Assembly (NCBI GenBank): GCA_038886535.1
Contig: JAVZXS010000002.1
Location: forward strand, 182,151-246,150
Direction: 5' to 3'
Length of the DNA: 64,000 nucleotides
From: Candidatus Micrarchaeia archaeon
GTDB lineage: Archaea; Micrarchaeota; Micrarchaeia; CABMEP01
The position numbers were made by a program, and so were the translations under genes. The notes under the pieces were generated by a model. The model did not search any database. It was not told the origin of the DNA and saw only the letters and a program-made list of their open reading frames with translations. Positions within the stretch are counted from its first letter, which is position 1. Each line of letters starts with the position of its first letter. Positions 2,714 through 54,539 of the stretch are shown piece by piece.

Positions 2714-2765
2714 ACCTTTTTAATTTAGTATTAACATCAAATATTGAAACTCATCATTGTGAAAA

Positions 2766-4232: not shown

Positions 4233-4320
4233 GTAATCATCCCCATGAGCCGGATTTTATAAGTTTTTAGATCTCATTCGAGATCTAAGCTTTTAGATCA
4301 AGATCAAAAACAGAGGCACA

Positions 4321-4587
4321 TCAAACAACCACTCTATAATAAATACTTTTTGCATGCCTTTCTTCTCTGTATATTTTTATTATGTCTCCTTTTTTCGGAT
4401 TAAGATGTCTTATAGCCGGATCATCTATTTTAATTTTTGGTAACTGTTCTTTTGTAACATTAAGGCTCTCCAGCAACTTTTTTTCTTCTTCTTCTTTTAA
4501 TATTTCATGCTTAGGAATTAGTTTATGCACTATAGGTTCATTTTCAAAATTCGAAGTTTCGTGTTTTTTAACCTTAGTTTTGGCCAA
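4321..4587 (-). CDS. rpoH: RNA polymerase subunit H (Rpo5)
   Basis: HKLIPKHEIL...LPKIKIDDPAI...YYRVV; first gene of the RNAP operon; TTG start after GGTGGT. Confidence 0.96.
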   Translation of the reverse strand: MAKTKVKKHETSNFENEPIVHKLIPKHEILKEEEEKKLLESLNVTKEQLPKIKIDDPAIRHLNPKKGDIIKIYREERHAKSIYYRVVV

Positions 4588-4819
4588 ATTACCACCATAG
4601 AATGCCGGTTAGATATCACTAAGGATAGCCTAACAACTAGCATTTCTTTCAGAGATCTAGATCTAAAAGCAAAATATATTAGTTATTAAGATTTATAAAT
4701 ATTTTGTTACTTTTAGATTTTTTTTCTTTTTTAATCGGCCAGTGGGATTTTTGGTTAGTTTTTTAAAACTCACTACATATTTCAATAATATAATTCAAAT
4801 GTAATTAATCAGTGATAGA

Positions 4820-18810: not shown

Positions 18811-19887
18811 TTACCACATAACCTCTTCTATCATTTCATATGCCTTGTGTTCTTGTTTCTGCGGTTCAAGGTTTCCAAGCAATGATGTTGATGTTACACC
18901 AGTCATGATTGCAGTGACAACAACCTTGTCTCCGAGTTCTGGCATGAGTCTTGCTCCCCAGATTACATTTGCATTGTTGTCAAATGCTGCAGTTATTCCT
19001 TCACCAATCTTGGTTGCCTCACCCAATGTAAGGTTTGGACCACCTGCTATGTGGATGAGGGCTCCCTTTGCACCCTCATAGCTGACATCAAGCAATGGGT
19101 GCTCTAGTGTGCTCTTTATTGCATCCTCAACTTTGTTTGTTCCCTTTCCTTCTCCAACAGAGAGCATTGCAACTCCACCGTTGCCCATGATTGCTCTTAT
19201 ATCTGCAAAGTCAATGTTGATGAGTGATGGGGTCATTATAGTATCGGATATTCCTTTTATTGCTCTTGCAAGGATTTCATCTGCTACATTGAATGCCTCA
19301 TTCATTGGTAAGTTTGGCACATATTGAACTAATCTGTTGTTGTCAATCACAACCACGGTGTCACATGTTTTTCTTAATTCTTCCAATCCCCATCTTGCCT
19401 TTTCTGTTCTCGCTCTCTCAAGAGAGAACGGGTATGTAACCATACCAACTACTATTGCACCCTCTTTCTTTGCAACCTCTGCAACTACTGGTGCAGCACC
19501 TGTACCTGTACCTCCTCCCATACCTGCTGTAATGAATACTAAATCTGCTCCGCTTAATGCCTCTGCAAGCTTGTCTTTTGATGCCTCAGCTGCCTTTCTT
19601 GCAACCTCCGGATATCCTCCAGCACCAAGACCTCTTGTTATTGACTGACCAATTAAGAGTCTCTTGTGAGCCTCTGTTATCTTTAGGTGGTTGACATCAG
19701 TGTTAATTGCTATTGTGTCTGCTGTTTTTATCCCAGATCTCATTATTCTGGTGATGCTGTTGCATCCACCTCCACCTACTCCTACAACAGTGATTCTGAT
19801 CTTGTCAGATCCAAGGTAATCTTTCTCCGGTGCCTTGGTCGCCTTAACTGTGGTTCCAGATGTAAACGAACTTAGGAAGCTTTCCAT
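18811..19887 (-). CDS. ftsZ: Cell division protein FtsZ (FtsZ2-like), downstream copy
   Basis: [35 protein letters not shown] at 19887 chosen because of the GGGTG SD and a MES start like the paralogue. Confidence 0.95.
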
Positions 19888-19936
19888 TTTAACACCCTGC
19901 CTCAAATATTATTTTCCACTAAAAAAATTAAGTGGA

Positions 19937-19964: not shown

Positions 19965-21026
19965 TCAACCAATTATTTCAATGTCACCATAAACTGGTGA
20001 TTCTACTTTTTGCTCTTCAAGTGGTACTCCTACTACACTTGCGCCCTTTACTCCAGTTACGATCGCAACTATTTCTATCTTGCCATCGTATCCTGGAATA
20101 AGTCTTGCTCCCCACTTGACGCTTGCTGTTGAATCCATTCTTTCAGTTATTATTTCTCCTGCTTTGATTGCATCTCCCAGTGTTAGATCGTTTCCACCAG
20201 AGATGTGGATCAAAGCACCCTTTGCTCCTTCGAAGTCAACATCAAGCAATCTGTTCTTTAGAACTCCTTCTGCAGCTGCCTGAACCTTATTTGTTCCTCT
20301 TCCTTCACCAACTGCAATGAAACCAACATCACCTTGAGACATGATTGCTCTTACATCTGCAAAGTCAATGTTGATTAATGAAGGCTGTGTGATTGTCCAG
20401 ACAAGTCCACCAATTGCTCTTGCAAGTATCTCATCTGCAACTCCGAAAGCCTCGTTCATTGGGAGATTTGGAACTAATTGAACCAGTCTGTTGTTGTCAA
20501 TTATAATAACACTGTCTGCGTGTTTTCTAAGCATCTGAATTCCTTCGTCTGCTTTGCTTCTTCTTGCCTTTTCAAGTGCGAATGGGTATGTAACCATAGC
20601 AACTACTATTGCACCTTGTTCTTTTGCAATTTCTGCAACAACAGGAGCACTTCCTGTACCTGTACCTCCTCCCATACCTGCACATATGAATACTAATTGT
20701 GCGTCCTTCAATGCTCTTTCAATTAAAGGCTTGTCAATTTCTGCAGCCTTTCTTCCTACATCAACATATCCTCCAGCACCAAGACCTCTTGTTATAGATT
20801 TACCTATAAGAATCTTTTGAATCCTTTCATCTAATGTCAATAAGTGCTGGTTATCTGTATTGATTGCAATCAAATCAGCACCCTTGACACCATATCTAAG
20901 AAGTCTCTGAAGGGTGTTGTTTCCTCCACCACCGCAGCCCACGACTGCGATCTTAATTCTTTCAACTGGACCAAGATTTGACTCAGCCTCAGTGTGTCCT
21001 GTAACAGATTTGATTAAGCTTTCCAT
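19965..21026 (-). CDS. ftsZ: Cell division protein FtsZ (FtsZ2-like), upstream copy
   Basis: [36 protein letters not shown]. Confidence 0.95.
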   Translation of the reverse strand: MESLIKSVTGHTEAESNLGPVERIKIAVVGCGGGGNNTLQRLLRYGVKGADLIAINTDNQHLLTLDERIQKILIGKSITRGLGAGGYVDVGRKAAEIDKPLIERALKDAQLVFICAGMGGGTGTGSAPVVAEIAKEQGAIVVAMVTYPFALEKARRSKADEGIQMLRKHADSVIIIDNNRLVQLVPNLPMNEAFGVADEILARAIGGLVWTITQPSLINIDFADVRAIMSQGDVGFIAVGEGRGTNKVQAAAEGVLKNRLLDVDFEGAKGALIHISGGNDLTLGDAIKAGEIITERMDSTASVKWGARLIPGYDGKIEIVAIVTGVKGASVVGVPLEEQKVESPVYGDIEIIG

Positions 21027-21618: not shown

Positions 21619-22764
21619 TCAGATTATTTCTTCGATATTTCCGTCTGCAGCTTTTTCAATTCTTTCCATTATTGCTCTTCCTATTCCGAATTCATAAACT
21701 CCTTCAATTAAGATAACATCGAAATTATTTTTATCGGCATTTCTCAACTCTTTAAATAGACAACGGGCCATTTGAATATGGTTTTCATACTCTGTGATGT
21801 TTCCTAATTTAGAAAATTCTTTCTTCATTTTTTCAGGTATTGGTTCTGAGAATATTATCTTTACTTTTTTCTTTTTATTGGATAATTTTTCTGCAGCATA
21901 TGCCATATTTATTATTGTTTTCATTCTGCCATCCTTTCTTCTTCCTATGAATACCTTTGCATCTGGAGAATAGTGTTTATATTTCATACCTGGAGAAAGA
22001 GGTTTTTCGCAGTTCTTTTTGCAGATTTCAATATTCTTCTTTAGTTCTTCTTCTATTTGTTCTTTTGTTATGTAACCTTCTCTTAAAATAGTATATGGTT
22101 CAGACACCATATTAATTACAGTTGATTCAATACCTATCTTACATTGGCCACCATCTATAATTAATGGGACCTTTCCTTGAAGATCAAAAAATGCATCTTT
22201 TGCATTAGTGGCACTCGGTTTTCCTGAAAGATTTGCAGAAGGAGCAGCGATAGGAAATCCCGATGCTTTGATTATGTCTAATGCAATAGAGTGGTTTGGC
22301 ATTCTTATTGCAATAGTATCTAATCCTGCAGTTGTTATCTCTGGTACTAAAGTATTTTTCTTTAATATCAAAGTTAAAGGTCCAGGCCAAAATTTGTTCA
22401 TTAGTCTCTTAGCATCTTCGCTTATCTCTTCAACTAAGAATTTTAACATTTCTAAAGATGATATATGAACAATTAATGGATTGTCTTTAGGTCTGTTTTT
22501 TATTTTAAATATCTTAGAAACAGCGCTAGAGTCAAATGCATTTGCACCTAAGCCATAAACTGTTTCGGTTGGAAATACTATAACCTCTCCAGAATTTAGT
22601 AATGATGAAACTTCTTCTATTATTCTTTTATATTCATGTACATGTAGTTTTCTTACATCGATTATTTTAGTGTTGATAATCCGTTCTTCTTTTGGGTTGA
22701 GGATTTGATGGTTTTTATTTTTTCCCCTTGCTTCTTTCTCTTTTTTATTTCTTTTCAAATCCAT
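21619..22764 (-). CDS. sua5: Threonylcarbamoyl-AMP synthase Sua5
   Basis: FPTETVYGLGA, K.RP.DNPLIVH, APSANLSG, SPGMKYKHYSP. Confidence 0.96.
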   Translation of the reverse strand: MDLKRNKKEKEARGKNKNHQILNPKEERIINTKIIDVRKLHVHEYKRIIEEVSSLLNSGEVIVFPTETVYGLGANAFDSSAVSKIFKIKNRPKDNPLIVHISSLEMLKFLVEEISEDAKRLMNKFWPGPLTLILKKNTLVPEITTAGLDTIAIRMPNHSIALDIIKASGFPIAAPSANLSGKPSATNAKDAFFDLQGKVPLIIDGGQCKIGIESTVINMVSEPYTILREGYITKEQIEEELKKNIEICKKNCEKPLSPGMKYKHYSPDAKVFIGRRKDGRMKTIINMAYAAEKLSNKKKKVKIIFSEPIPEKMKKEFSKLGNITEYENHIQMARCLFKELRNADKNNFDVILIEGVYEFGIGRAIMERIEKAADGNIEEII

Positions 22765-24934: not shown

Positions 24935-25294
24935 CTATTCCTTCAATGCTTTTTTTACTTCTTTTATTAAATCTGTATGTATGGATGTTTTAGGCAGAAC
25001 TCTAACTGGAAAATATTTTGCTGCGAATTCTCTTTCTATTTCAAATGGCATTCCTACTGCAGTCACTACTATTACTGGTTTATTTAATCTCATTTTTTTG
25101 AATTCAGCCATTACTTCTCTTCCAGACATTACCGGCATCATGATGTCTAAAAGTATAAGGTCATAATTTTTTGCCTTTTTGATTCCTTCTTTCGGATTCA
25201 ATGCATAGTCTGCTTTATACCCATTCATTTCTAAAAGCATCTTAACACTTTCTGCAACATCACTTTCATCTTCTATTATTAATATCTTTTTCAT
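24935..25294 (-). CDS. Stand-alone response regulator (REC)
   Basis: ILIIEDE, LLDIMMP (phospho-Asp), VVTA, LPK. Confidence 0.93.
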   Translation of the reverse strand: MKKILIIEDESDVAESVKMLLEMNGYKADYALNPKEGIKKAKNYDLILLDIMMPVMSGREVMAEFKKMRLNKPVIVVTAVGMPFEIEREFAAKYFPVRVLPKTSIHTDLIKEVKKALKE

Positions 25295-25307: not shown

Positions 25308-28300
25308 CTATTCCCTTGGAAGAATTATCTCAAATCTAGTACCTTTTCCTTTTTCACTCTTTACGTTTATCTCTCCTTTGTGTTTATCAACAATTTCTTT
25401 AACAATTGTTAAACCAATTCCCGTGCCCGGTGAATTTGGATCTGCCTTATAAAATTTTTCAAAAATATGGGATTTTTCTTCTTCTGTCATTCCGATTCCA
25501 GTATCTTCTACAGCAATCATAAATTTATGGTCGAAGGATTTGGTTTCTATTTTTATTTCCCCTTTATCAGTAAATTTAACAGCATTGCTTATAAGGTTTG
25601 ATAGCATCAATGAAAACAAATTTTTATCTATCATAGCTACTATAGGTTCTAATTCCCTTTTAATGACTATTCCTTTTTTATTTGCTAGCGGAGAGTACTC
25701 TTCATAAATCTCATTAATCAAATCATTTATTATTGTTCTTTCTTTATTTAGAGCCACTGAACTTAATCTAGTTAAATTCAATATCTGATCTATAGAGTTC
25801 TTTAATCTTTCACCACTTCTTTGCAGCATTTCAATCATTTTGAGCCATTCTTTTTCCTTTCCAATTGGTGCCATTTGCTTTAGCATTTCTAAATTTGTTA
25901 ATATAACTGAGGTGGGCGTTTTAAGTTCGTGCGTCATATTTCTTATAAATTCATCTTTTGTTTCTTCTAGCCTTTCAATCTGCTGCAATTTTTCATTTAG
26001 CTCTTTAGTTTTATTTTCTACTTCTTTTTCCAATTCTATCCTGTAGTTTTTCTCTAAATTTTCTTTTTCTTTTCTTTCAGTTATGTCATGAAACATAATG
26101 TATATTTTATTTAATTTATTTTTTTCTAATTCTCCTTGAGCTAGGATTTCAACATCGTATTTTTTACCATCTAAGCTTATTTCTATATCGTCGTGATAAA
26201 TTCCATCTCTTTTAACTGCAGAAATTATTTTTTTAATAAGTTTTTTATCCGAGTAAATATCAAAAATATTCTTTCCGATCAGTTCAGTTGTTTTTAACCC
26301 ATATCTCTCAATAGAAGGGGTTACTAATTCAATGTTTAGCTTATCATTTAACTCAAAATATATGTCGTTTATGTTTTGGAATAATGTTCTATATCTTTTT
26401 TCAGATTCAGTTATAAGATCTATTATTTCTTTTTCTTTCGTTATATCACGATATACAATAATAAGATCGCCTGTTTTAATTTTAAAAACATAGTAATCAC
26501 GCCATCCTTTTCTTATCGGATCACTGTAATATATGTTTTTAATTTGCGTTTTTTTACCTGTTTTGAGTGTCTGTCGAAGCTGTTTTAATAATCCTAGTTT
26601 TTTAATTCCTGGAAACATTTTTGCGATGTTCTTTCCTATTACTTCTTCTTTTTTAACTTTGCTTATTTCAGTGGCTCTTTCGTTTATTTCTTTAATAATG
26701 AAGTTTCTTCCATTTTTAATAGGGGTTAAAACAATTATGCCATCACTGATATTCTCAAATATATTAAAGTAAAGTTCTTCTCTTTCTTTTAATTTTTCTT
26801 CTATTGATTTTCTTTGTCTTATATCTCTTAGGATTGCTATTAATTTTATTTCATTTCCTATAGTAAATTTATTCATAGTTAATTCAATTGGAATATTTTC
26901 TTCTTTTGTTCTAATATTTACTTCTACTGTTTTTCCAATTAGGGGCGATTTTCCTGTCTTCTTAAAAATATTTAATCTATTCAATGGATATTCTTTGACT
27001 GAAAGTATAGAATGAATATCCTTTCCTTTTATCTTTTCTAACTGATAGCCTGTTAGTTTTTCAAATGCTTTATTAACATATTCGAACCTAAGATTGCTGT
27101 CTCCCACTACGATTGCATCTACACTAGCATCGAAAACGCCTTTTAAATATTCATTGTCTTTTTTAATTTCGTCTAACAATTCCTGCTCTCTAGTTAGATT
27201 TATGTGGTTTGCAAAAAAGTAAGAAGGCTTGCCTTTTTCAAAAACAGTATCAATTATTAATCTAACTGGAATATTATTTCCATATTTATCTTTGTTGATG
27301 ATATTCCCTTCCCAGTGACCTTTTCTTTTGTCTAAAATGGATTTCCACATTTCTTTATAGGTTTTTAATGGAGTCAGTCCAGATTTTAATATTTTTGGAT
27401 TTTTACCGATTACTTCTTTTTCATCATATCCATAAAGACCAGTGAAAGCAGAATTAACGTGCATTATAACTGGTTCATTGTTTTCATATTTTACTAAAAG
27501 TCTTGAAATTGCACTTAATGTGAATCCTTTTTTTAGTAATTTTAATTCATCAATTTTTCTTTTTTCAGATTCTTCAAGTTCTTTTTTGTAAATCATTTGG
27601 CTGATTTGCGAAGCTAAATCTTTGATCAATTTAATCATATATCTGTTTATTAAAATCTCATTTCTGAAATGTATAGTTAGGATCCCATAGAATTTGTTTC
27701 TTATTTTTATAGGATATAATGCAGCAGAATGGCTGCCAGTTTCTTCTTTATGCTGTCTGTAAATTCCTTTAGAAACATCTTCAATGACGAATCCCTTTTT
27801 CTTAACTTTCTCAATCAATTCATCATTATAAAAACCTAAAATCTCCTCTTTTGTTTGATCAGTCGAAGAATAGAAATAAAGTTCCTTGCTTTTTCCATCA
27901 ATTCTTAAAAGATGGATGCAACCTAAATATTTATTTTTATGGATTTTTTGAACAACTGCGCTTAATATTTTTTCTTCTATAAGTGGCTTATTCAAAATTA
28001 TATGAACATCCAGTAAGGTTCTAAGTAGTTCATTTACTACTTTTAATTCTTCAGTTTTCCTTAGCTCTTCAGTTATTTCATTTAAAATCAGCATAACTTC
28101 GACAATGTTATTATTTTCATCCGTTATTGGGTTACAGATGGTTATAAATTTTCTTTTTTTACCCCCTATCATTAATTCCAAATGTTTTATTCCTTCTTTG
28201 CCGTTTACCGCATTTAAAAACAAACGTTGTACTTCATTATTTTCAATTTCTTTAATTCTTAAAAAAGGAATTTTTTTCATCAATTTGTTCTTAAAAATAA

Positions 28301-28400
28301 AGTTTCCTTTTAAATCCAGAATTGCAATATTTACTGGGAGATTTCTGATTATTCTTTTCATTAATGGTGTTATAATTTGTTTTGCACCTGCTGTTTCCAT
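25308..28400 (-). CDS. Cytoplasmic multi-PAS/GAF sensor histidine kinase
   Basis: Several PAS repeats, a GAF-like segment, H-box THELKTP, NLISNAVKF, DTGIG, GTGIGL. Confidence 0.93.
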   Translation of the reverse strand: METAGAKQIITPLMKRIIRNLPVNIAILDLKGNFIFKNKLMKKIPFLRIKEIENNEVQRLFLNAVNGKEGIKHLELMIGGKKRKFITICNPITDENNNIVEVMLILNEITEELRKTEELKVVNELLRTLLDVHIILNKPLIEEKILSAVVQKIHKNKYLGCIHLLRIDGKSKELYFYSSTDQTKEEILGFYNDELIEKVKKKGFVIEDVSKGIYRQHKEETGSHSAALYPIKIRNKFYGILTIHFRNEILINRYMIKLIKDLASQISQMIYKKELEESEKRKIDELKLLKKGFTLSAISRLLVKYENNEPVIMHVNSAFTGLYGYDEKEVIGKNPKILKSGLTPLKTYKEMWKSILDKRKGHWEGNIINKDKYGNNIPVRLIIDTVFEKGKPSYFFANHINLTREQELLDEIKKDNEYLKGVFDASVDAIVVGDSNLRFEYVNKAFEKLTGYQLEKIKGKDIHSILSVKEYPLNRLNIFKKTGKSPLIGKTVEVNIRTKEENIPIELTMNKFTIGNEIKLIAILRDIRQRKSIEEKLKEREELYFNIFENISDGIIVLTPIKNGRNFIIKEINERATEISKVKKEEVIGKNIAKMFPGIKKLGLLKQLRQTLKTGKKTQIKNIYYSDPIRKGWRDYYVFKIKTGDLIIVYRDITKEKEIIDLITESEKRYRTLFQNINDIYFELNDKLNIELVTPSIERYGLKTTELIGKNIFDIYSDKKLIKKIISAVKRDGIYHDDIEISLDGKKYDVEILAQGELEKNKLNKIYIMFHDITERKEKENLEKNYRIELEKEVENKTKELNEKLQQIERLEETKDEFIRNMTHELKTPTSVILTNLEMLKQMAPIGKEKEWLKMIEMLQRSGERLKNSIDQILNLTRLSSVALNKERTIINDLINEIYEEYSPLANKKGIVIKRELEPIVAMIDKNLFSLMLSNLISNAVKFTDKGEIKIETKSFDHKFMIAVEDTGIGMTEEEKSHIFEKFYKADPNSPGTGIGLTIVKEIVDKHKGEINVKSEKGKGTRFEIILPRE

Positions 28401-33177: not shown

Positions 33178-35283
33178 ATGATTGGAATAAAGAAAGTTCA
33201 AAAGAGAGATGGTTCAATAGTAAAATTCGATCAATCTAAAATCACAAATGCAGTTTACAAAGCAACGGAAGCCGCAAAAACACCAGATATGAAACTTGCA
33301 CAAAAGATTTCAGATAGAGTTGTTAAAAAGCTCTCTGCCGTCTTTAAAAACAAGATACCTTCAGTTGAAGAGATACAAGACATAGTTGTAGAAGAACTTT
33401 TAAGGGAGAATAAAAAAATTGCAAAACTTTACATCAACTACAGAAGAGAAAGAGCAGAGATAAGAGAAAAGAAAAAAGTTCTTTTTGGAGTTTATGATGA
33501 TCTTAAATTGGATCTAAATGCAACTAAGGTATTGGCTTCAAGATATCTACAGAAAGACGTTAGCGGAAAAATCATCGAAACTCCAAAGCAAATGTTTAAG
33601 CGAGTCGCAAAGAAAATCGCAGAATCAGATCGAGTTTATGGAGAAGATGTGAAAAAATCAGAAAAAGTTTTCTATGAAATGATGAGCAATCTTGAATTTC
33701 TGCCAAATTCACCAACATTAATGAATGCAGGAACAAGATTAGGACAGCTTTCCGCATGTTTTGTGCTTCCAATAGATGATTCTTTAGAAAGTATTTTTGA
33801 GACATTGAAGCACGCAGCACTCATACATCAAAGCGGAGGAGGAACTGGTTTTTCATTTTCAAGGATTAGGCCAAAAGGTGACTTAGTACGTTCTACAATG
33901 TCAATCGCATCAGGTCCTGTTTCATTCATGAAGATATACGATGCGATGACAGAAACAATAAAGCAAGGGGGGAGAAGGCGCGGTGCAAACATGGGTGTTT
34001 TGAGATGCGATCATCCAGATATAATTGAATTTATCAATTCCAAAAAACAAGGTGGACTGAAAAACTTTAACATCTCAATCGCGGCTACAGATCGTTTCAT
34101 GAAAGCAGTTCAAAAAGATGACGATTATGAATTAATAAATCCAAGAACGGGGGAAGTAACAAAAACAATCTCTGCAAGAGAAGTGTTTAATCTTGCAGCT
34201 GAACAAGCATGGGAAATAGGCGATCCAGGAATTATATTTATAGATAGAATTAATAAATTACATCCATTAAGAAAAATTGGAGAAATAGAGGCTACAAATC
34301 CTTGTGGTGAGCAGCCTTTATTGCCATACGAATCTTGTAATCTAGGAAGTATAAACCTTACTAAATTCATACTTTCAGATGGAAGTGATTTTGATTGGGA
34401 TAGATTAGAAATTGCAATTCAAAATGCAGTGCATTTTTTAGACAATGTTATTGATGCAAATTCTATTCCTATTAGTGAAATAGATAGAGTTACAAAAGCA
34501 AATAGAAAGATAGGATTGGGTATAATGGGATGGGCGGATTCTCTCATTCTTCTTGGAATTAGATACGATAGTAAAGAAGCAATTTTAATGGCTGAAAAGC
34601 TGATGAGATTTATAAGACAGATATCATACAATACATCTACAGATCTTGCAACTAAAAGAGGAAGCTATCCAAACTTCAAATTTGCAATTTATCCATCCAG
34701 ATATAAACGATTAAGAAATGCAACATTAAATACCATTGCGCCAACAGGTTCGCTTTCAATAATTGCAGGTGTATCTTCTGGAATCGAGCCTTTATTTGCA
34801 GTTGCTTATTATAGACAAGTGCTAGAAAACATGAAGCTGATAGAGATAAATAGAATCTTTCATTCTATTTCTATTGAAAGAGGTTTCTATAGCAGATCAT
34901 TAATGGAAAAGATCTCACATGGTTTATCAATACAGAAAATGAGTGAAATTCCAAGAGATGTAAGAGATTTGTTTGTTACTGCTTATGATATTGAACCGAT
35001 ATGGCATTTAAAAATGCAAGCAGCTTTCCAAAAATATGTTGATAATGCAGTTTCAAAAACAATAAATCTGCCATATGACGCAACTGTAGATGAAGTTGAA
35101 GACATCTATCTTAAGGCATACGAATTAGGAATAAAGGGAATAACTGTTTATAGATATGGAAGCAAAGTAGAGCAAGTAATATACCTGGGTCTTCCAAAAG
35201 AAGTGGGCGAAGAACAGAAAAGAAAGGTCACTGTTTCTTCTGAATTCGCAGGCCATTGTTCATCAGGTATTTGCCAATTATGA
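33178..35283 (+). CDS. nrdJ: Class II (adenosylcobalamin-dependent) ribonucleotide reductase with ATP cone
   Basis: KRDG ATP cone, NSPTLMN, SACF, TNPCGEQPL, IAPTG, C-terminal CSSGIC. Confidence 0.94.
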   Translation: MIGIKKVQKRDGSIVKFDQSKITNAVYKATEAAKTPDMKLAQKISDRVVKKLSAVFKNKIPSVEEIQDIVVEELLRENKKIAKLYINYRRERAEIREKKKVLFGVYDDLKLDLNATKVLASRYLQKDVSGKIIETPKQMFKRVAKKIAESDRVYGEDVKKSEKVFYEMMSNLEFLPNSPTLMNAGTRLGQLSACFVLPIDDSLESIFETLKHAALIHQSGGGTGFSFSRIRPKGDLVRSTMSIASGPVSFMKIYDAMTETIKQGGRRRGANMGVLRCDHPDIIEFINSKKQGGLKNFNISIAATDRFMKAVQKDDDYELINPRTGEVTKTISAREVFNLAAEQAWEIGDPGIIFIDRINKLHPLRKIGEIEATNPCGEQPLLPYESCNLGSINLTKFILSDGSDFDWDRLEIAIQNAVHFLDNVIDANSIPISEIDRVTKANRKIGLGIMGWADSLILLGIRYDSKEAILMAEKLMRFIRQISYNTSTDLATKRGSYPNFKFAIYPSRYKRLRNATLNTIAPTGSLSIIAGVSSGIEPLFAVAYYRQVLENMKLIEINRIFHSISIERGFYSRSLMEKISHGLSIQKMSEIPRDVRDLFVTAYDIEPIWHLKMQAAFQKYVDNAVSKTINLPYDATVDEVEDIYLKAYELGIKGITVYRYGSKVEQVIYLGLPKEVGEEQKRKVTVSSEFAGHCSSGICQL

Positions 35284-35336: not shown

Positions 35337-35957
35337 TCATTCGGTTTCTTCCTCTTCTTTAGATTCTTTCCGTTTTTGATACCTGCCTCTCTTTTCTATT
35401 TCATCCATTTGTCCGATTATCTTTTCCCATCCTTTAAGATTTTTGTATCCTTCTAAAAAATATTTGAAATTTCTCCCTATAGATCTTTTCATTAATAAAA
35501 CATCTATTGCTCTCTCTTCTGGATCCTTTGAAAATTCTGCGAGACCAAAATCTATGATATATGGTTCATTTTTTATGAACATTACATTTGCAGGGGTGAA
35601 GTCACCATGTGTTATTCCTATTGAATGAAGCTTACAGAGTAGCTTTCCAACGTTTCTATAATCATTAGGAGAATTTTTTCGATCTTTCATTAATTTTCCT
35701 TCAAGCCTTTCAAGAATCAACTCGTATTTGCCGGCATGGTATATTTTAGGAACATTTATGCTATTTTTTAAGGCGTGAAGTATGCATCTTGCTTCTGTTT
35801 TGTTTCTCGTTTTTCTAAGTATTTCATCTAATTCACTTATTCTGTATTCCTTTTTATCTCTGATTTTTATAACAACAGGAAGACCAAATAAATCAGAGAA
35901 ATAGACCTTTGCTTCTGCGCCTCTGCTTTTGTAATTCCTTTGTTTACTTTGGCTCAC
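35337..35957 (-). CDS. bud32: KEOPS kinase Bud32
   Basis: RGAEA, K.R..K.YR...LD, HGDFTPAN, IDFGL, RGRY; GTG start overlaps the DAC stop (GTGA). Confidence 0.93.
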   Translation of the reverse strand: MSQSKQRNYKSRGAEAKVYFSDLFGLPVVIKIRDKKEYRISELDEILRKTRNKTEARCILHALKNSINVPKIYHAGKYELILERLEGKLMKDRKNSPNDYRNVGKLLCKLHSIGITHGDFTPANVMFIKNEPYIIDFGLAEFSKDPEERAIDVLLMKRSIGRNFKYFLEGYKNLKGWEKIIGQMDEIEKRGRYQKRKESKEEEETE

Positions 35958-36649
35958 TCTTCTCCCTTCTTTTCTTTGAGAACGGTCGGTCCCCTCTTTA
36001 GAAATTCACCCAAGCTTCTTGCACCACTTTTTGTTATAATATAAGAACCTGTGAATACTATTGCTGCAACAAATGGATTCAATCCTAGTGCCAATGCACC
36101 TATGCTTCCTCCACCTATCAATGGCAGAGAGGGCGAAGTGAGCAACTCAGCTATTTTTTCACTTAAAGTAGGTGGTGTTTTAGTGAATGGATTTATCTCT
36201 ATTAACGTCTTTCCATTCTTCATAATTCTTACAGCACCATCCTCTTCACTTGAGATTATAGAAAGAGTTCCTGGCACTTCAGATATCCCAAGCGCAGCGC
36301 TATGTCTTGTGCCATGTCCTTTGTAATGTTTTGTCTTTTTAATTTGAGCGCCATATGCAATAAGATATCCGTCTTCATCGATTATTATTGCACCATCAAG
36401 TTCAGCAAGCTTCCTTATAACTGGAAGGATTCTCTGATTATTTATTTTGACTTTTGTTTTTTCCAATATATCAGTGTATAACCATGAATAGTACGGTTTA
36501 AGATTTCTATTAGTGATTATGAAGAATGAACCTTTTTTTTCCTGTCCGAATTCCATTGCGAGATCAATCACTAATTTAACTATATTCTTTTCTAAGTCTA
36601 TATCATTGATTATTTTTTCTTTCACTTTTTTATCTACCATTATTTCCAC
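35954..36649 (-). CDS. Diadenylate cyclase (DisA_N/DAC domain) with C-terminal hydrophobic segment
   Basis: LAELDGAIII, HGTRHSAALGIS, SSEEDG motifs. Confidence 0.88.
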   Translation of the reverse strand: MEIMVDKKVKEKIINDIDLEKNIVKLVIDLAMEFGQEKKGSFFIITNRNLKPYYSWLYTDILEKTKVKINNQRILPVIRKLAELDGAIIIDEDGYLIAYGAQIKKTKHYKGHGTRHSAALGISEVPGTLSIISSEEDGAVRIMKNGKTLIEINPFTKTPPTLSEKIAELLTSPSLPLIGGGSIGALALGLNPFVAAIVFTGSYIITKSGARSLGEFLKRGPTVLKEKKGEE

Positions 36650-36744
36650 CTATATTTCTTCAATTTTAATTTGAATTGGTCGTATAATTAATTAGTAGAC
36701 AAATGTATATAAACTTTAATGCAATTTTTTCTAAAACTTGCAAG

Positions 36745-37743
36745 CTATTGCCATTTTATTAAAAATTCATCGGTTCTAAACTTAGGCTTTGGAAGTATTT
36801 TGTTGGGAGAGAGAAGATATTTTCTTTGTTTTTTTTCATCCAATTTTGATATTAGATATCCCACATATGCAATCATTCCACCATTATCTGCATTGAATTC
36901 ATTTGGTGCTACTCCGAATTTACAGTTCCATTCTTTCGCCATATCTGAGAGCATTTTTTGCAATCTTTTATTTTGCGCAACTCCCCCGCAGATTGTTATT
37001 TCTTTTTTTTCAGTCAATGCAAGGGCTCTTTCTGTTATTTCACATAATGCTGCATATGATGTTTCTTGCAATGAATAACATATGTCTTCTATTTTCTCCT
37101 TTCCTATTAATTTTTCTGAATGTGTCAATATCCCGCTGAAAGAAGCATCCATTCCCTTTACAGAATATGGCATCATTATGTACTTCTTTCCATTCAGGGC
37201 TTTTTCTTCCACATCTTTTGCATTTTTTAATCCCGCAGATCTTGCAAATGTATCTAGCATGTTTCCAATTCCAACATCAAGAGTTTCTCCGAGAATATGA
37301 TATCTATTTTCCTTCTTAATAAGTATCTGTGTATTTCCGCCGCTTACATAAAGAACAAGGGGATCTTTAAATCCAGTGAAATACTTAGAGATTTCTATAT
37401 GTGCAACACAGTGGTTAACACCTACAACTGGTTTATTAAATGAAATCGCAAGTGTTCTTGCTGCTATTGAGGATATTCTTAGACAAGGCCCGATTCCAGG
37501 TCCTTGAGAAAATGCTATTAAATCAACATCTTTTAATTTAATTCCAGCTTTTTTAAGAGCTGCTTCCATTACTTCTTGGAATGCATCTGCATGATGGTCT
37601 GCTGTCTTTCTTGGATGGATTCCATACTCAAAAAGCATACTTTTTTCGTTTGCAATTATTCTTCCATTTTTTACTATACCTATTCCTAGTGTATGCGCAG
37701 TGCTTTCAATTCCTAGTACTATTTTTGTTGTATTCGGTTTCAT
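36745..37743 (-). CDS. kae1: KEOPS t6A transferase Kae1
   Basis: LGIESTAHT, GPGIG, NHCVAH, VSGGNTQ, GGVAQN, DNGGMI. Confidence 0.96.
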   Translation of the reverse strand: MKPNTTKIVLGIESTAHTLGIGIVKNGRIIANEKSMLFEYGIHPRKTADHHADAFQEVMEAALKKAGIKLKDVDLIAFSQGPGIGPCLRISSIAARTLAISFNKPVVGVNHCVAHIEISKYFTGFKDPLVLYVSGGNTQILIKKENRYHILGETLDVGIGNMLDTFARSAGLKNAKDVEEKALNGKKYIMMPYSVKGMDASFSGILTHSEKLIGKEKIEDICYSLQETSYAALCEITERALALTEKKEITICGGVAQNKRLQKMLSDMAKEWNCKFGVAPNEFNADNGGMIAYVGYLISKLDEKKQRKYLLSPNKILPKPKFRTDEFLIKWQ

Positions 37744-37929: not shown

Positions 37930-39510
37930 ATGCTATTCGAATTGATATTTATTCTTGCAGGAGTTGCAATATTCATTTATAGTATTGAGCAGCTTAGTGA
38001 TCAGCTCCTGCGAGTTTCAAAAGAAAGACTTAAAGAAATACTTCAAAGATTTACAGACAAACCTCTAAAGGCATTAGGGACAGGTTTGATAGTAACTGCA
38101 GTTATTCAATCAAGCACTGCAACTACTTCTATCTTAGTTTCTCTCGTCAATGCAGGTTTGATATCTTTTGAGCAGAGTCTTGGTGTTATAGCAGGTGCAC
38201 ATATAGGAACAACAGTTACAGCACAACTTGTTGCGTTTAGGTTTATGTGGTTTGCGCCTATTTTTATATTATTGGGATTCCTATTAAGTTTGTTCCAGAG
38301 ATACAACTTGCTAGGAAAGTCAATCTTCCTTTTTGGTCTTGTGTTTTTTGCACTCTCTATAATCTCAGAAGCAACAACGCCATTTAAAGAGAGCCAAGAA
38401 TTAAAGGACTTGCTTGTTTCTTTAGACAATCCATTATATTCTATTATTGCAGGCATTGTTTTAACCCTAATACTTCAATCCAGCTCAATAGTCACTGCAC
38501 TTGCAGTTCTGCTTACAATGGAAGGTTTAATTCCTGTATCTATTTCAATTCCATTGGTGTTGGGAAGTAACATAGGAACAACATCTACAGTTTTATTTGT
38601 TTCAAAGAATATGGACATATATGCAAAGAGGACTGCATATGCACACTTTCTTTTCAGCACTGTAGGTGTCATTCTTATATATCCATTTCTTACTGACTTC
38701 ACTTCTTTTGTAAATTCTATAAGTTTGAATGAAGGTTCAGCGGTTGCAAATGCACATACAATATTCAATGTAATAATGGCTGCCGTTTTCTTAATTTCAT
38801 TACCTGTTTTCATAAAATTAATAGAGAAATTAACTCCAACTACCGAAAAGCAGATTCTTTTCATGCCTAAGCATATAAAAAGAATACCAAGAGATACGGA
38901 TCTCGCAATAGAAAAGATAAAGTTGGAACTTGTCAATCATTTGCAAATCTCTAAAGAGATGTTTACGATAGCAACAGATATGATAGCAAATAAGGACATC
39001 TCAAAATTGCAAACAATAGAGAAGTATGAATCTTTAAGCGATTATTTGGATTCTAAGATAACCAATGCGCTTGTTGAGCTCTCTCAAAGAAATCTTACAG
39101 AAAAGCAATCTTCGCAGATCGTTCTTCTTTCAAAAATCTCAAATGAAATTGAAAGATTGGCAGACGCTGCGCATGATTATGCGTATATCACGCAAAAACT
39201 AAATGAAAACAATTTAGAGTTTTCAAAAGACTCTATCAGGGACATATTAAAAATAAAGTTCGCTCTGGATGAAATTTATGATTTTGTTGAATTCAATTTC
39301 AATTCGATTAATTCTTCAAAACTATCAAAGATAATCAAGATGAGAAAAAATGTAGATAAGCTTATATCCTCTTCGCATAGATTAAGAATTAAACTGCTTT
39401 CAGATGAAAAGATCGGTACGTACTCCACTGTTTTATTTATTGATGCAATTTCTTTTTTTGAGGAAGCAGTTTCAGTTTTGGTAAGAATATCAAAGAATCT
39501 AAAAACGTAA
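37930..39510 (+). CDS. Na+/Pi cotransporter (NptA/YjbB) with PhoU-like C-terminus
   Basis: Two QSS repeats, G(A/S)(H/N)IGTT twice, helical PhoU-like tail (EIERLAD). Confidence 0.92.
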   Translation: MLFELIFILAGVAIFIYSIEQLSDQLLRVSKERLKEILQRFTDKPLKALGTGLIVTAVIQSSTATTSILVSLVNAGLISFEQSLGVIAGAHIGTTVTAQLVAFRFMWFAPIFILLGFLLSLFQRYNLLGKSIFLFGLVFFALSIISEATTPFKESQELKDLLVSLDNPLYSIIAGIVLTLILQSSSIVTALAVLLTMEGLIPVSISIPLVLGSNIGTTSTVLFVSKNMDIYAKRTAYAHFLFSTVGVILIYPFLTDFTSFVNSISLNEGSAVANAHTIFNVIMAAVFLISLPVFIKLIEKLTPTTEKQILFMPKHIKRIPRDTDLAIEKIKLELVNHLQISKEMFTIATDMIANKDISKLQTIEKYESLSDYLDSKITNALVELSQRNLTEKQSSQIVLLSKISNEIERLADAAHDYAYITQKLNENNLEFSKDSIRDILKIKFALDEIYDFVEFNFNSINSSKLSKIIKMRKNVDKLISSSHRLRIKLLSDEKIGTYSTVLFIDAISFFEEAVSVLVRISKNLKT

Positions 39511-51323: not shown

Positions 51324-54300
51324 ATGGTTGAGGAAGATACTAAGAAGGAAGTTCTTGATGCAGATGCATATTATGAAAAAGGAAACTATTACTACGAACA
51401 AGGAGATTATGATAGAGCTATAGAAAATTACAACATGGCTATAATTCTTAATCCTAGATTTTTAGAGTGCTATTTTAACAGGGCTTTATGTTATTATAAT
51501 AAAAAGAATTATGACAAGGCAATAGAAGATTACACTAAAGCTATAGAGATTGATCCAGATAATCCAATGATATATAACAACAGGGGAGATGCATATTATA
51601 GGAAACAAGATTTCGAAAAGGCGATAGCAGATTATAATAAGGCTATAAGCTTAAACCCAGAGTACTTAAAAGCATATTATAACAGGGGATTGGCATACGC
51701 ATCAATGCAGGACTATGAAAGCGGAGTAGAGAACTTTACTAAGGTTATAGAGCTTGATCCTAATTTTGTAGAGGCATATAATGCAAGAGGATTGGCCTAT
51801 GAATTTCTTGAGAAATATGATGAAGCAATCGCAGATTATCAGAAGGCATTAGAGATAAACCCTAATTTCACAGAGGCACAAGAGCACTTGGCAGCAGCAC
51901 AGAAAAAGAAATCAGAAAAAGAAGCATCCAGTGGCGAAGGTGTTTCAGCTGTCAAATTCATGGCAAAGCCAAAAGTGACTTTCAAGGACGTAGTGGGAAT
52001 GGATCAGGTAAAAGAACTAATCAGAGAGTACATAGTTTATCCACTGAAAGATCCTGAGCTTGCAAGGAAATATGGAAAGTTTGGTGGAGGTGGAGTTCTT
52101 TTCTATGGACCACCCGGATGTGGTAAGTGTGTTTCTCCAGACACACCAATTCAGTTATCAAACGGTCAGATTCTCTCAATTGAAGAGATTTATAACATTG
52201 CAAGAGGGAATGGGAAAGAAATAAAGTTAGGAGAGGAAGAGATAGTAGAAAATCCTTCAGTTAAGGTATTATCCTTAAATCCAACCACTCTAAAGATAGA
52301 AGAGAAAAATGTGTTATTTGCATACAAGCAGAGATATAAAGGAAAGATGTATGAGATAATAACTCGCTCTGGCAGAAAGATATCTGTAACCCCAGAACAT
52401 CCTTTCTTCTCTGTTGACAATGGAGTAGTAAAGATAAAAGCAAAGGATCTCTCTGTTGGTTCCTACATTGCAACCCCAAGGGAATTAACCGTGCAGCCGG
52501 TTCCTTTGATTGCAAATGAATCTCAAGACATGTTCCTTCCAATTTCTATATTCAGAATACAGAATTCAAGGTTGGATAGCGTTTCAAATCAAACGAATGT
52601 TAGATTGAGATATAAAGCTTATAGAAGGCCTGCAAAAGAATTCAATCAGATAAATTATGTGGATCAGGATGTTGCTGAATTATTCGGTTATCTTCTTTCT
52701 GAAGGCTCTTCAAATGGAGGCACAATATTCTTTTTCAATTCAGATAAAAACCTAGTTGACAGAGTAGAGCATCTCTCCTCTAAGGTTTTTGGAATAAAGC
52801 CACGCATAAAACCGGACAGATCTCAAAATGTATTAAGGTTAGAAATATCATCAACAGGACTAATAAAATATCTAGAGCAAACTCACGGATTCAAGCTTAT
52901 AGGTTCTAGAAATACAAAGGTACCAATAAGCATAATTACGGCTAAAAATAAAATAGTGGCAGAGTTTCTTTCTGCTGTTTTTGAAAGCGAAGCAAACATT
53001 CGTAAGGATGTTCCAGAAATCGAATTCACAACTGCAAGCAAGGTATTTGCAAATCAGATATCATATTTGCTTTTAAGATTCGGAATAATCGGAAGAATCA
53101 AAGAGAAATCAGTTAGAGGATATGATCATACCTATTATAGAATCTATGTGACAGGCCATAATCAACTAAAATTATTTGAAGAAACAATAGGCTTCAAGAG
53201 CGAAAGAAAAAGAAAGCTATTAAGAAAGTGGACTTCTAACCAAGTTAAAGAAAATACAAACGTAGATGTAATACCAAATATCAGCAATCTGTTAATGAAA
53301 GCAAGAGAAGGGCTTGGAATGAACAAAGAACAATTCTATGACACAAGCTCAAAACATGGAAAGGCATATGAATCATCTAAGCATCTTAGCAGGAATCTTC
53401 TTGCGAGATTAATTTCAGATAAGAGAGAAACAAATGAAATTAAAAAACTAAGATTACTTGCTGATTCTTCTGTGCTATGGGACGAAGTTGTAAAGATAAG
53501 AGAATTCGACTATGACGGATTCGTTTATGATCTTACAGTGGAAGACAATCATAATTTCATAGCTGGTTTTGGAGGGGTAGTGGTACATAATACATTTATC
53601 ATGAAGGCGGCAGCAGGAGAGGTAGGTGCAAACTTCCTTAATGTGAAATTAAGCGATGTTCTTGATATGTATGTCGGTAACACTGAAAAGAACATTAGAA
53701 ATATTTTCGAAGCTGCAAGAAAAGCATCGCCATGCATAATTTTCATAGATGAAATTGATGGGTTAGGTGGAAGAAGAGAACAGATGAAGGAATCAGGTCA
53801 ATACATGAGGATGGCAGTCAACCAATTGCTTTACGAAATGGATGGAGTTGAGGCAAGAAATGAAAATGTATTAGTAGTAGCGGCGACAAACGCGCCATGG
53901 GATGTTGATCCTGCATTAAGAAGAGCTGGACGATTTTCAAAGCTTATTTATGTAGGAGAACCAGATTATGCATCAAGAAAGGCAATGTTTCAATACTATG
54001 CAAAAGGAAGACCTGTTTCTAAAAATGTTGATTGGGATAGATTAGCAAGGGCAACTGAGGGATATTCCTCTTCTGACATTAAGGCAATCAGCGATGATGC
54101 AGCAGCTATTCCATGGATAGAGGCTTTGAAGACAGGAAAACAAAGAGAGATAACAATGAAAGATTATATAGAAGTATTAGATCCATTTGCAGCAGATCCA
54201 ATTAAATACTTAACCGCAGCTAAAAAGCCTAAAGGAAAGAAATCCTCTCTTCCACCATGGTATGAAAGTGCAAAGAAAGAGATAGGCAAGCAGGAAGAAG

Positions 54301-54539
54301 TAGAGACAGTTGATGGAAAAGAGATAAAGAGAATAAAGGAACCAAAAATGCCACCTGGAGAAAGAGAGTATTTCAAAGAATTGATAGATTTAATTGAAAG
54401 TAGGAATAAACCCCACAATAAATTCCTTCTTTGGTTATGGAGAAAAAGCGCTCTTTACCAAGATTATTTAGTTCCATTTGTTATTGCAGGAATAATATAT
54501 TTGCTTTATATTGCATTCCAATCTTCTTTAGGCTTCTAA
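51324..54539 (+). CDS. TPR-repeat AAA+ ATPase (CDC48/Vps4-like module) with intein and C-terminal TM
   Basis: About 5 TPRs; GPPGCGK|intein|T; pore loop MYVG; FIDEID; ALRRAGRF; hydrophobic C-terminal tail. Confidence 0.9.
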   Translation: MVEEDTKKEVLDADAYYEKGNYYYEQGDYDRAIENYNMAIILNPRFLECYFNRALCYYNKKNYDKAIEDYTKAIEIDPDNPMIYNNRGDAYYRKQDFEKAIADYNKAISLNPEYLKAYYNRGLAYASMQDYESGVENFTKVIELDPNFVEAYNARGLAYEFLEKYDEAIADYQKALEINPNFTEAQEHLAAAQKKKSEKEASSGEGVSAVKFMAKPKVTFKDVVGMDQVKELIREYIVYPLKDPELARKYGKFGGGGVLFYGPPGCGKCVSPDTPIQLSNGQILSIEEIYNIARGNGKEIKLGEEEIVENPSVKVLSLNPTTLKIEEKNVLFAYKQRYKGKMYEIITRSGRKISVTPEHPFFSVDNGVVKIKAKDLSVGSYIATPRELTVQPVPLIANESQDMFLPISIFRIQNSRLDSVSNQTNVRLRYKAYRRPAKEFNQINYVDQDVAELFGYLLSEGSSNGGTIFFFNSDKNLVDRVEHLSSKVFGIKPRIKPDRSQNVLRLEISSTGLIKYLEQTHGFKLIGSRNTKVPISIITAKNKIVAEFLSAVFESEANIRKDVPEIEFTTASKVFANQISYLLLRFGIIGRIKEKSVRGYDHTYYRIYVTGHNQLKLFEETIGFKSERKRKLLRKWTSNQVKENTNVDVIPNISNLLMKAREGLGMNKEQFYDTSSKHGKAYESSKHLSRNLLARLISDKRETNEIKKLRLLADSSVLWDEVVKIREFDYDGFVYDLTVEDNHNFIAGFGGVVVHNTFIMKAAAGEVGANFLNVKLSDVLDMYVGNTEKNIRNIFEAARKASPCIIFIDEIDGLGGRREQMKESGQYMRMAVNQLLYEMDGVEARNENVLVVAATNAPWDVDPALRRAGRFSKLIYVGEPDYASRKAMFQYYAKGRPVSKNVDWDRLARATEGYSSSDIKAISDDAAAIPWIEALKTGKQREITMKDYIEVLDPFAADPIKYLTAAKKPKGKKSSLPPWYESAKKEIGKQEEVETVDGKEIKRIKEPKMPPGEREYFKELIDLIESRNKPHNKFLLWLWRKSALYQDYLVPFVIAGIIYLLYIAFQSSLGF
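52128..53591 (+). mobile_element. Intein (488 aa) with LAGLIDADG homing endonuclease in the Walker A motif
   Basis: Starts CVSPDT; block B VTPEHPF; LFGYLLSEG and FLSAVFESEA helices; VYDLTV..HNF; ends VVHN before Thr+1. Confidence 0.95.

Follow-up and report, generated by a model that had tools for sequence, protein, structure and literature searches.

A DAC Gene Between kae1 and bud32

What is a gene for a cyclase of signaling nucleotides doing between two genes of tRNA modification? The question is raised by a 64,000-nucleotide (nt) stretch of contig JAVZXS010000002.1 (assembly GCA_038886535.1), hereafter called the window, from a Micrarchaeota (DPANN) assembly of 1.14 Mb that is 88% complete (genome G000). 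On the minus strand of the window, kae1, a gene for a protein with a diadenylate cyclase (DAC) domain, here called dac, and bud32 follow one another, and plus-strand genes bound this trio on both sides. Our answer, which we hold to be probable, is that dac encodes a membrane-anchored synthase of cyclic di-AMP (c-di-AMP), and that dac came to lie between kae1 and bud32 in a single event, with co-expression by descent. The features on which the argument leans are the following.

36745-37743, minus strand: kae1, the KEOPS subunit for transfer in N6-threonylcarbamoyladenosine (t6A) synthesis, 332 amino acids (TIGR03722, E = 2.3e-128, 427.9 bits against a cut-off of 375; PF00814, E = 1.3e-71)
35954-36640 (228 amino acids, from ATG) or 35954-36649 (231 amino acids, from GTG), minus strand: dac, DAC-domain protein (PF02457 match)
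35337-35957, minus strand: bud32, the KEOPS kinase/ATPase, 206 amino acids from GTG (TIGR03724, E = 1e-49, 168.6 bits against a cut-off of 125)
35954-35957, minus strand: GTGA junction, made up of the dac stop TGA (35954-35956) and the bud32 start GTG (35955-35957)
36646-36650, minus strand: GGTGG, a Shine-Dalgarno-like word five bases 5' of ATG 36640, from direct reading of the sequence
33178-35283, plus strand: ribonucleotide reductase (RNR), bounding gene (library match)
37930-39510, plus strand: Na/Pi cotransporter-PhoU protein (NaPi), bounding gene (library match)
21619-22764, minus strand: sua5, threonylcarbamoyl-AMP synthase, long form with Sua5_C (PF01300, E = 4.2e-64; PF03481, E = 5.4e-28)

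A preliminary description of this DNA had reported a DAC gene with DGA and RH motifs separating kae1 from bud32, and a dac stop codon overlapping the bud32 start. Open reading frame (ORF) coordinates, sequence and profile matches agree on the first point, and the shared GTGA at 35954-35957 confirms the second. Sua5 is encoded inside the window, as had been stated, 14 kb from the trio, and is the sole Sua5/YrdC homologue detected by tblastn in the genome. The name "KEOPS locus" was too strong, since Cgi121 and Pcc1 are located on another contig. The ATG at 36640 is probably the true start of dac (228 amino acids), because GTG 36649 lies inside the GGTGG word, a 97%-identical database protein has 228 amino acids, and one relative of the locus (L003) has no GTG at that position; residue numbers below nevertheless follow the 231-residue ORF. 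No other DAC match was found in this 88%-complete genome. Comparisons drew on 27 public loci, 301 genomes of the phylum and a class sample of 61 genomes.

dac Encodes a DAC-Fold Protein of Unusual Architecture

The dac product matched the Pfam DAC domain (PF02457) with 59.3 bits (cut-off 27, E = 3.6e-16) over residues 34-147, covering profile positions 7-118 of 119. Conservation of its motifs was read from an alignment of 32 dac relatives (A1), in which the Gly of G-T-R-H-S (residues 113-117), G113, was also invariant.

36389-36397, minus strand: DGA codons, residues 85-87; D85 and G86 invariant and A87 in at least 90% of the 32 relatives; pairs with HDGA of CdaA
36299-36310, minus strand: T-R-H-S codons, residues 114-117; R115 and H116 invariant and S117 in at least 90%; pairs with GTRHRAA of CdaA
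36242-36250, minus strand: S-E-E codons, residues 134-136; invariant; pairs with SEE of CdaA

A profile built from these relatives aligned with CdaA chains across the whole catalytic domain (E = 5.6e-13). The AlphaFold2 model of dac had a predicted local distance difference test score (pLDDT) above 90 over residues ~20-155, and a Foldseek search with it returned DacM, CdaM and CdaA first (E ~5e-9 to 1e-7, probability 1.00), with target-normalised TM-scores of 0.55-0.69 for the CdaA, CdaM and DacM chains listed. The protein is a bona fide member of the DAC fold, and its unusual architecture becomes apparent when it is set beside characterized cyclases.

By profile, the closest catalytic domain is that of DacZ (CdaZ) of Haloferax, Methanocaldococcus and Pyrococcus (NF041371, E = 7.4e-13). 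The match reached only 48.4 bits (cut-off 430) at profile positions 123-267 of 270, and dac lacks the N-terminal pyruvate-kinase-C-like domains of DacZ. CdaA (DacA) has the catalytic fold and the DGA, G-T-R-H and S-E-E motifs in common with dac and is likewise a membrane-tethered, main or only cyclase (the tether of dac being predicted), but it carries RHR where dac has RHS, and its profile met dac only in the DAC part (TIGR00159, 38.5 bits against a cut-off of 188.8, profile positions 113-232). The best structural matches were to CdaM/DacM of Mycoplasma (7dg0, 7dfx, 8ofj), a small cyclase with one hydrophobic anchor, whose profile gave 24.7 bits (NF038327, cut-off 225). The absence of an N-terminal extra domain from dac, noted in the preliminary description, was therefore borne out: the DacZ, CdaA and CdaM profiles match through their DAC parts only and far below their cut-offs.

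A C-Terminal Hairpin Is a Probable Membrane Anchor

The other architectural claim, a Gly-rich hydrophobic hairpin at the C-terminus, also proved real, and the hairpin is conserved.

36029-36133, minus strand: Gly-rich hydrophobic hairpin, residues ~173-207, predicted membrane anchor

It consists of two short hydrophobic Gly-rich segments divided by Asn-Pro, followed by a conserved FTGS(Y/W)I(I/V)TK motif (FTGSYIITK in dac), and is kept across the family in alignment A1, with Kyte-Doolittle 15-residue means of 1.0-1.9. A hydrophobic C-terminal segment was present in 21 of the 32 short relatives scored, the rest being mostly fragments, against only one of 29 long forms; the hairpin is lacking in DacZ-like matches. 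The N-terminus of dac is hydrophilic. The hairpin is thus a probable membrane anchor, judged from its composition and conservation, and forms the hydrophobic part of dac at the end opposite to that used by the known enzymes: CdaA, encoded in a cdaA-cdaR-glmM operon, is anchored by three N-terminal helices, and the anchor of CdaM is N-terminal as well.

The protein would accordingly begin with a short helix, continue with a catalytic DAC domain most similar to that of DacZ and end in the hairpin, which would hold the enzyme at the membrane and probably help two DAC domains to meet. Placed face to face, each with one ATP and a metal ion, these domains would condense two ATP to c-di-AMP, which by analogy with other organisms would most likely serve ion, osmotic or envelope homeostasis.

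A short DAC without a regulatory domain, joined to two hydrophobic helices, also recalls the PanDA anti-virus systems, in which a minimal DAC feeds a membrane effector; PanS/PanE provide the precedent (PMC13640721, a preprint), and in dac the effector would be fused as the hairpin. We regard such a defence role as extremely unlikely. PanDA has an adjacent gene for an effector with two transmembrane helices and a beta-barrel, while the neighbors of dac are kae1 and bud32; no such gene stands beside its relatives, and dac itself has no beta-barrel effector part. Library scans of the window and of the relatives' loci found no defence genes nearby (Padloc was not run), and dac is single-copy and strongly conserved in a stable housekeeping block.

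The Active Site and the Case for c-di-AMP Synthesis

Several observations weigh against a c-di-AMP synthase held at the membrane. In dac the RHR motif ends in Ser117 where a second Arg would be expected, and this Ser is family-wide, as listed above; an RHR-to-AAA triple mutant of Mycobacterium tuberculosis DisA was inactive (PMC3328451). The hairpin of dac is of only moderate hydrophobicity and was modeled with pLDDT below 50. Searches of the 88%-complete genome for RCK_C, PstA/DarA and a CPA-type exchanger returned none, and only two CBS proteins were present, encoded at G000:C4:~1234-1590 and C2:~99371-100102. By sequence search, neither a c-di-AMP receptor nor a dedicated phosphodiesterase was identified in this genome, which leaves room for unconventional targets.

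The Ser, the inactive DisA mutant and the lack of an identified receptor or dedicated phosphodiesterase would suit a protein that kept the DAC fold and makes no c-di-AMP, acting instead as an inactive nucleotide-binding sensor or as the maker of another product; a minimal DAC that also makes cyclic UMP-AMP (cUAMP) is described in the PanDA preprint (PMC13640721). We consider this unlikely. The D, G, G-x-R-H and S-E-E residues are invariant, and the third RHR position is variable among DacZ-like relatives. In the 125 nearest relatives, DacZ-like proteins included, the G-x-R-H word was followed by Arg in only eight; Ser or Ala took this place in 60 of the 70 short forms, and Ala, Ile, Val, Met, Leu and others in the long forms. 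All eight long forms tested were DacZ-like by NCBIfam (below the haloarchaeal cut-off) and had Y, I, A, T or V at the third RHR position, so that the nearest long relatives of dac are likewise without the second Arg. As a defining feature of DAC enzymes, the second Arg is of doubtful weight in the light of these sequences. Archaeal DacZ-type enzymes are reported to be active (PMC12699388 and PMC10249747).

One candidate phosphodiesterase was tried and rejected. The sole DHH-DHHA1 protein of the genome has homologues in 266 of the 301 phylum genomes (a tally that includes the unpublished genomes G029 and G197), against 26 of 301 with a DAC, and is thus near-universal with or without a cyclase; we take it to be a housekeeping RecJ/GAN-like protein.

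The DAC Family and Its Tree

A word-index search gave 75 relatives of dac, 129-262 amino acids long and all with PF02457; the few with names came from Micrarchaeota, 'ainarchaeum', an unclassified archaeon, Syntrophoarchaeum and Methanosarcinales. An exhaustive search returned 4494 DAC-domain proteins at E ≤ 1e-3 and 51 cluster representatives at E ≤ 1e-30, the latter mostly of ~200 amino acids and with alignments running through the hairpin, and similar archaeal DAC-only clusters were listed in a protein atlas. On sequence grounds dac belongs to an archaeal DAC family of ~200 amino acids found in DPANN and in some methanogen-related lineages.

To our knowledge, archaeal c-di-AMP signaling has been characterized only for DacZ-type enzymes of Euryarchaeota. 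A 2025 paper (PMC12699388) states that dacZ orthologues are absent from DPANN and gives a summary of DacZ-type enzymes with activity in archaea and of TrkA_N-DHH-DHHA1 phosphodiesterases. According to PMC10249747, a number of candidate phyla of archaea were predicted to have DACs in Galperin 2023, a work that, according to PMC13640721, defined 22 DAC families; a DAC with a C-terminal hairpin may already be among those 22 architectures. The compact architecture of DAC and hairpin occurs widely, in Micrarchaeota, in lineages resembling Iainarchaeota and in some archaea related to methanogens, and dac would be a small, tractable enzyme for studying cyclase regulation without an N-terminal sensor domain and the role of c-di-AMP in genome-reduced symbionts.

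DAC-family matches occurred in 26 of the 301 phylum genomes, and in three of these the match was weak and lay in a frame of ~400 amino acids. The three (G095:C5:13940-14323, G096:C11:6099-6488 and G250:C7:12025-12345; E = 3e-9 to 4e-6) belong to one genus and cover only the first ~110-127 profile positions, and tblastn with the DAC of the window was negative there. Some Micrarchaeota carry two copies of the family, in tandem in G076 (L038:4998-6432) and dispersed in G060, G159 and G042.

In the DAC tree, the proteins from the trio formed one clade (support 100/99). Its sister (support 95/88) was a clade whose 13 rows include four with Iainarchaeota, Diapherotrites or 'ainarchaeum' in the title, and not the other Micrarchaeota DACs. 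Forcing all Micrarchaeota DACs together cost 34 log-likelihood units (p = 0.004 in the approximately unbiased test, for a group chosen after the tree was seen and with an arbitrary root). This topology is compatible alike with acquisition by transfer and with sorting of old paralogues.

Within the trio, identity to the DAC, Kae1 and Bud32 of the window was 96.5, 86.8 and 85.9% in L004, 93, 80 and 73.5% in L005, and 72.7, 63.4 and 50.3% in L008. As read from these sequence identities, the DAC is under purifying selection and has diverged less than either Kae1 or Bud32.

A Single Origin of the Trio

The arrangement recurs in other genomes. The order kae1-dac-bud32 was found in eight of the 27 public loci (L002-L009; DAC identity 61-99%) and in the four other phylum-sample genomes of the same GTDB family. 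The class sample added four family members, so that the DAC lies between kae1 and bud32 in nine of nine genomes of the family (the genome of the window included, by coordinates). One genome of a sister family in the same order has bud32 directly next to a DAC that is cut by the contig start, and its kae1 ends another contig.

Outside this lineage the linkage disappears. The other 19 public loci (17 family members and two weak DAC-only matches) had neither kae1 nor bud32 within up to 4 kb of the DAC, or less at contig ends, and no trio was found at 21 loci in 18 DAC-bearing phylum genomes of other families; in sum, kae1 and bud32 were absent within 4-5 kb at all 17 + 21 DAC-family loci outside the lineage. 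Inside the family, by contrast, the whole block NifS-RNR-bud32-dac-kae1-NaPi-CobA-orf116-NifS (~10 kb) is syntenic, and only NaPi and RNR have been lost from it, in the most distant members. Because the whole block is syntenic, one cannot tell conservation of the trio apart from a conserved gene order in general. Given the single DAC clade, the nine of nine family genomes with dac-bud32 in the sister family, the lack of linkage at the 17 + 21 other loci and the syntenic block, we conclude from sequence comparison that the trio originated once, within one order-level lineage.

bud32 Overlaps Its Upstream Gene Across the Phylum

The 4-nt GTGA-type overlap of dac and bud32 recurs in L002, L003, L004, L007 and L008, and L009 has a 9-nt gap instead. 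An apparent frameshift of bud32 in L009 was rejected, the break being a run of 10 N. The preliminary description had taken the overlap to imply translational coupling of dac with bud32. The overlap is real, but it is generic to bud32 and not specific to dac. Of 13 sampled genomes in which bud32 comes immediately after kae1, 11 have a candidate start of bud32 that overlaps the stop codon of kae1; the same overlap was seen in G042. In five of the 61 genomes of the class sample, from four other families, the order was kae1-sua5-bud32:

L062:83-2395, L063:46-2367, L064:68-2614, L065:55-2365 and L066:27-2861: kae1-sua5-bud32 operons, Micrarchaeota

The Sua5 in the middle slot is a short, YrdC-like form of 215-227 amino acids (PF01300, E = 2e-28 to 8e-53). 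The gap from sua5 to bud32 is -4, 0, 11 or 78 nt in four of the five operons, and the two genes overlap in L065. These are coherent t6A operons in which sua5 holds the slot taken by dac in the window. The trio thus has the same flanking genes and the same tight bud32 coupling as known arrangements, which include adjacent and fused kae1 and bud32 (a fused Kae1-Bud32 model exists, NF007174), and differs in having a DAC in the middle where those orders have nothing or sua5. Since bud32 overlaps kae1 or sua5 in the same manner, the coupling belongs to bud32 and not to dac, and overlap with the upstream gene, whatever that gene is, is by these gene coordinates a general habit of bud32 in the phylum.

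Elsewhere the two genes are less close. They are separated by 1.7-3.3 kb of unrelated, mostly opposite-strand genes in five genomes of another family, divergent in three genomes, far apart on one contig in three and on different contigs in 19; three genomes had no match.

The kae1-dac Spacer and Possible Transcription Units

The spacer upstream of dac bears on how far the three genes form one unit.

36695-36717, minus strand: AAAGTTTATATACATTTGTCTAC, an element resembling a B recognition element (BRE) and TATA box in the kae1-dac spacer of 95-104 nt, candidate internal promoter for dac-bud32

In the genus of the window (g1) the spacer is 95-144 nt long, and an element AAAGTTTATATAC...TTTGTCTAC is conserved in it, being kept in the window, L003, L004, L005 and L007 (alignment A3). 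L008 and L009, whose spacer measures only 12-14 nt, lack it. By its likeness to the archaeal TATA consensus, the element is a putative promoter. Its conservation suggests a separate dac-bud32 unit in this genus, and the short spacer of L008 and L009 suggests one three-gene unit there. The earlier proposal that dac is co-regulated with bud32 finds support in so far as co-expression is likely, given a junction kept across the family and in the sister family.

Gene Order and the Question of an Effect on Bud32

The preliminary description went further and proposed that c-di-AMP synthesis may act on the Bud32 ATPase and tRNA modification. In such a functional link, c-di-AMP or the DAC protein would modulate the Bud32 ATPase or t6A formation, or Bud32 would control the cyclase, with the DAC co-produced stoichiometrically with Bud32; a second messenger would then be tied to translation capacity. 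The junction would fit this, as it stays tight (4-nt overlap or 9-nt gap) even where Bud32 identity has dropped to ~45-50% and is seen in the sister family, and so would the better conservation of the DAC than of its neighbors and the lack of a canonical c-di-AMP receptor domain among those searched for in the 88%-complete genome. The slot itself also tells against a neutral gene order: in the five kae1-sua5-bud32 genomes it holds a true t6A gene, and operon membership is therefore not always functionally neutral.

We nevertheless judge a functional link quite unlikely, and the proposed action of c-di-AMP on Bud32 or t6A to be unsupported. The arrangement arose once, in a block where synteny is just as strong for flanking genes of no related function; no DAC lies near kae1 or bud32 at any of the 17 + 21 outside loci; and bud32 overlaps any upstream gene. 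The conserved TATA-like element between kae1 and dac in g1 also stands against the link, as does the location of Cgi121, Pcc1 and Sua5 elsewhere. Literature searches found no paper joining "diadenylate cyclase" with "Bud32", "KEOPS" with "c-di-AMP", or "c-di-AMP" with "Micrarchaeota", and 11 of the 12 supplementary files of a paper on a Ca. Micrarchaeum harzensis co-culture (PMC8975820) held no relevant cyclase or KEOPS entries.

A narrower form of the idea joins it to the history of the slot: the sole cyclase would have taken the middle place of an ancestral kae1-sua5-bud32 operon and become coupled in translation to Bud32, and the messenger or the membrane-bound cyclase might act on the Bud32 ATPase, as no c-di-AMP receptor of the usual kinds was found in the genome. 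If so, membrane or osmotic state would be linked to t6A modification of tRNA and to translation in a reduced symbiont. We think this very unlikely.

We therefore return to a gene order inherited from one event. In the ancestor of the order to which the window belongs, dac may have entered the middle slot of a kae1-(sua5)-bud32 operon, or replaced sua5 in it, and dac would now be co-transcribed and translationally coupled with bud32, following the habit of bud32 of coupling to the gene upstream. Seen beside the kae1-sua5-bud32 operons of sister families, kae1-dac-bud32 indicates that genes tightly coupled in an operon do not always share a function.

Neighbors of DAC Genes Elsewhere

At the other loci examined, the DAC genes were for the most part next to genes of membrane and transport functions, a context in favor of the membrane reading, and never next to KEOPS genes. 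The neighbors were a divergent Na+/H+ exchanger at four loci, SecD/SecF at four, an ABC-2 permease with a CARDB protein at three, an Obg-like GTPase at three (one also with RelA/SpoT), a Tyr/Trp-tRNA synthetase at three, and two TrkA_N genes with a DHH gene at one. The last of these, L053:3325-7190 (Micrarchaeota G217), has the DAC behind both TrkA_N genes, with the DHH gene further downstream in the reverse orientation, and is the closest context to known c-di-AMP/potassium systems among the loci examined. In a Candidatus Iainarchaeum locus (L018), a RelA/SpoT-TGS gene (2544-3944) lies directly upstream of the DAC gene (4001-4696) on the same strand, with the Obg-like GTPase nearby, so that two nucleotide-messenger synthetase genes stand side by side. 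Large Pfam 'Decapeptide' repeat proteins (PF25296, E ~1e-125 to 1e-133) were encoded one or two genes from the DAC in L011, L012, L013, L015, L016, L019 and L022, and in these seven Iainarchaeota-like loci an ORF of ~140-150 amino acids without a family sits between the repeat protein and the DAC.

Other Features of the Window

The RNR gene beside the trio seems to differ in one relative. That of L004 (5335-8541) aligned to the RNR of the window in two pieces ~1 kb apart (residues 1-376 and 342-701), which hints at an inserted segment, perhaps an intein, missing from the RNR of the window. The window has an intein elsewhere, and further genes of note.

51324-54539, plus strand: protein of 1071 amino acids with tetratricopeptide repeats and an AAA ATPase domain, the latter split by an intein with a LAGLIDADG endonuclease (PF14890, PF14528)
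18811-19905 and 19965-21026, minus strand: two tandem FtsZ paralogues
24935-25294 and 25308-28400, minus strand: a PAS-rich histidine kinase of 1030 amino acids followed by a stand-alone response regulator, in a reduced DPANN genome

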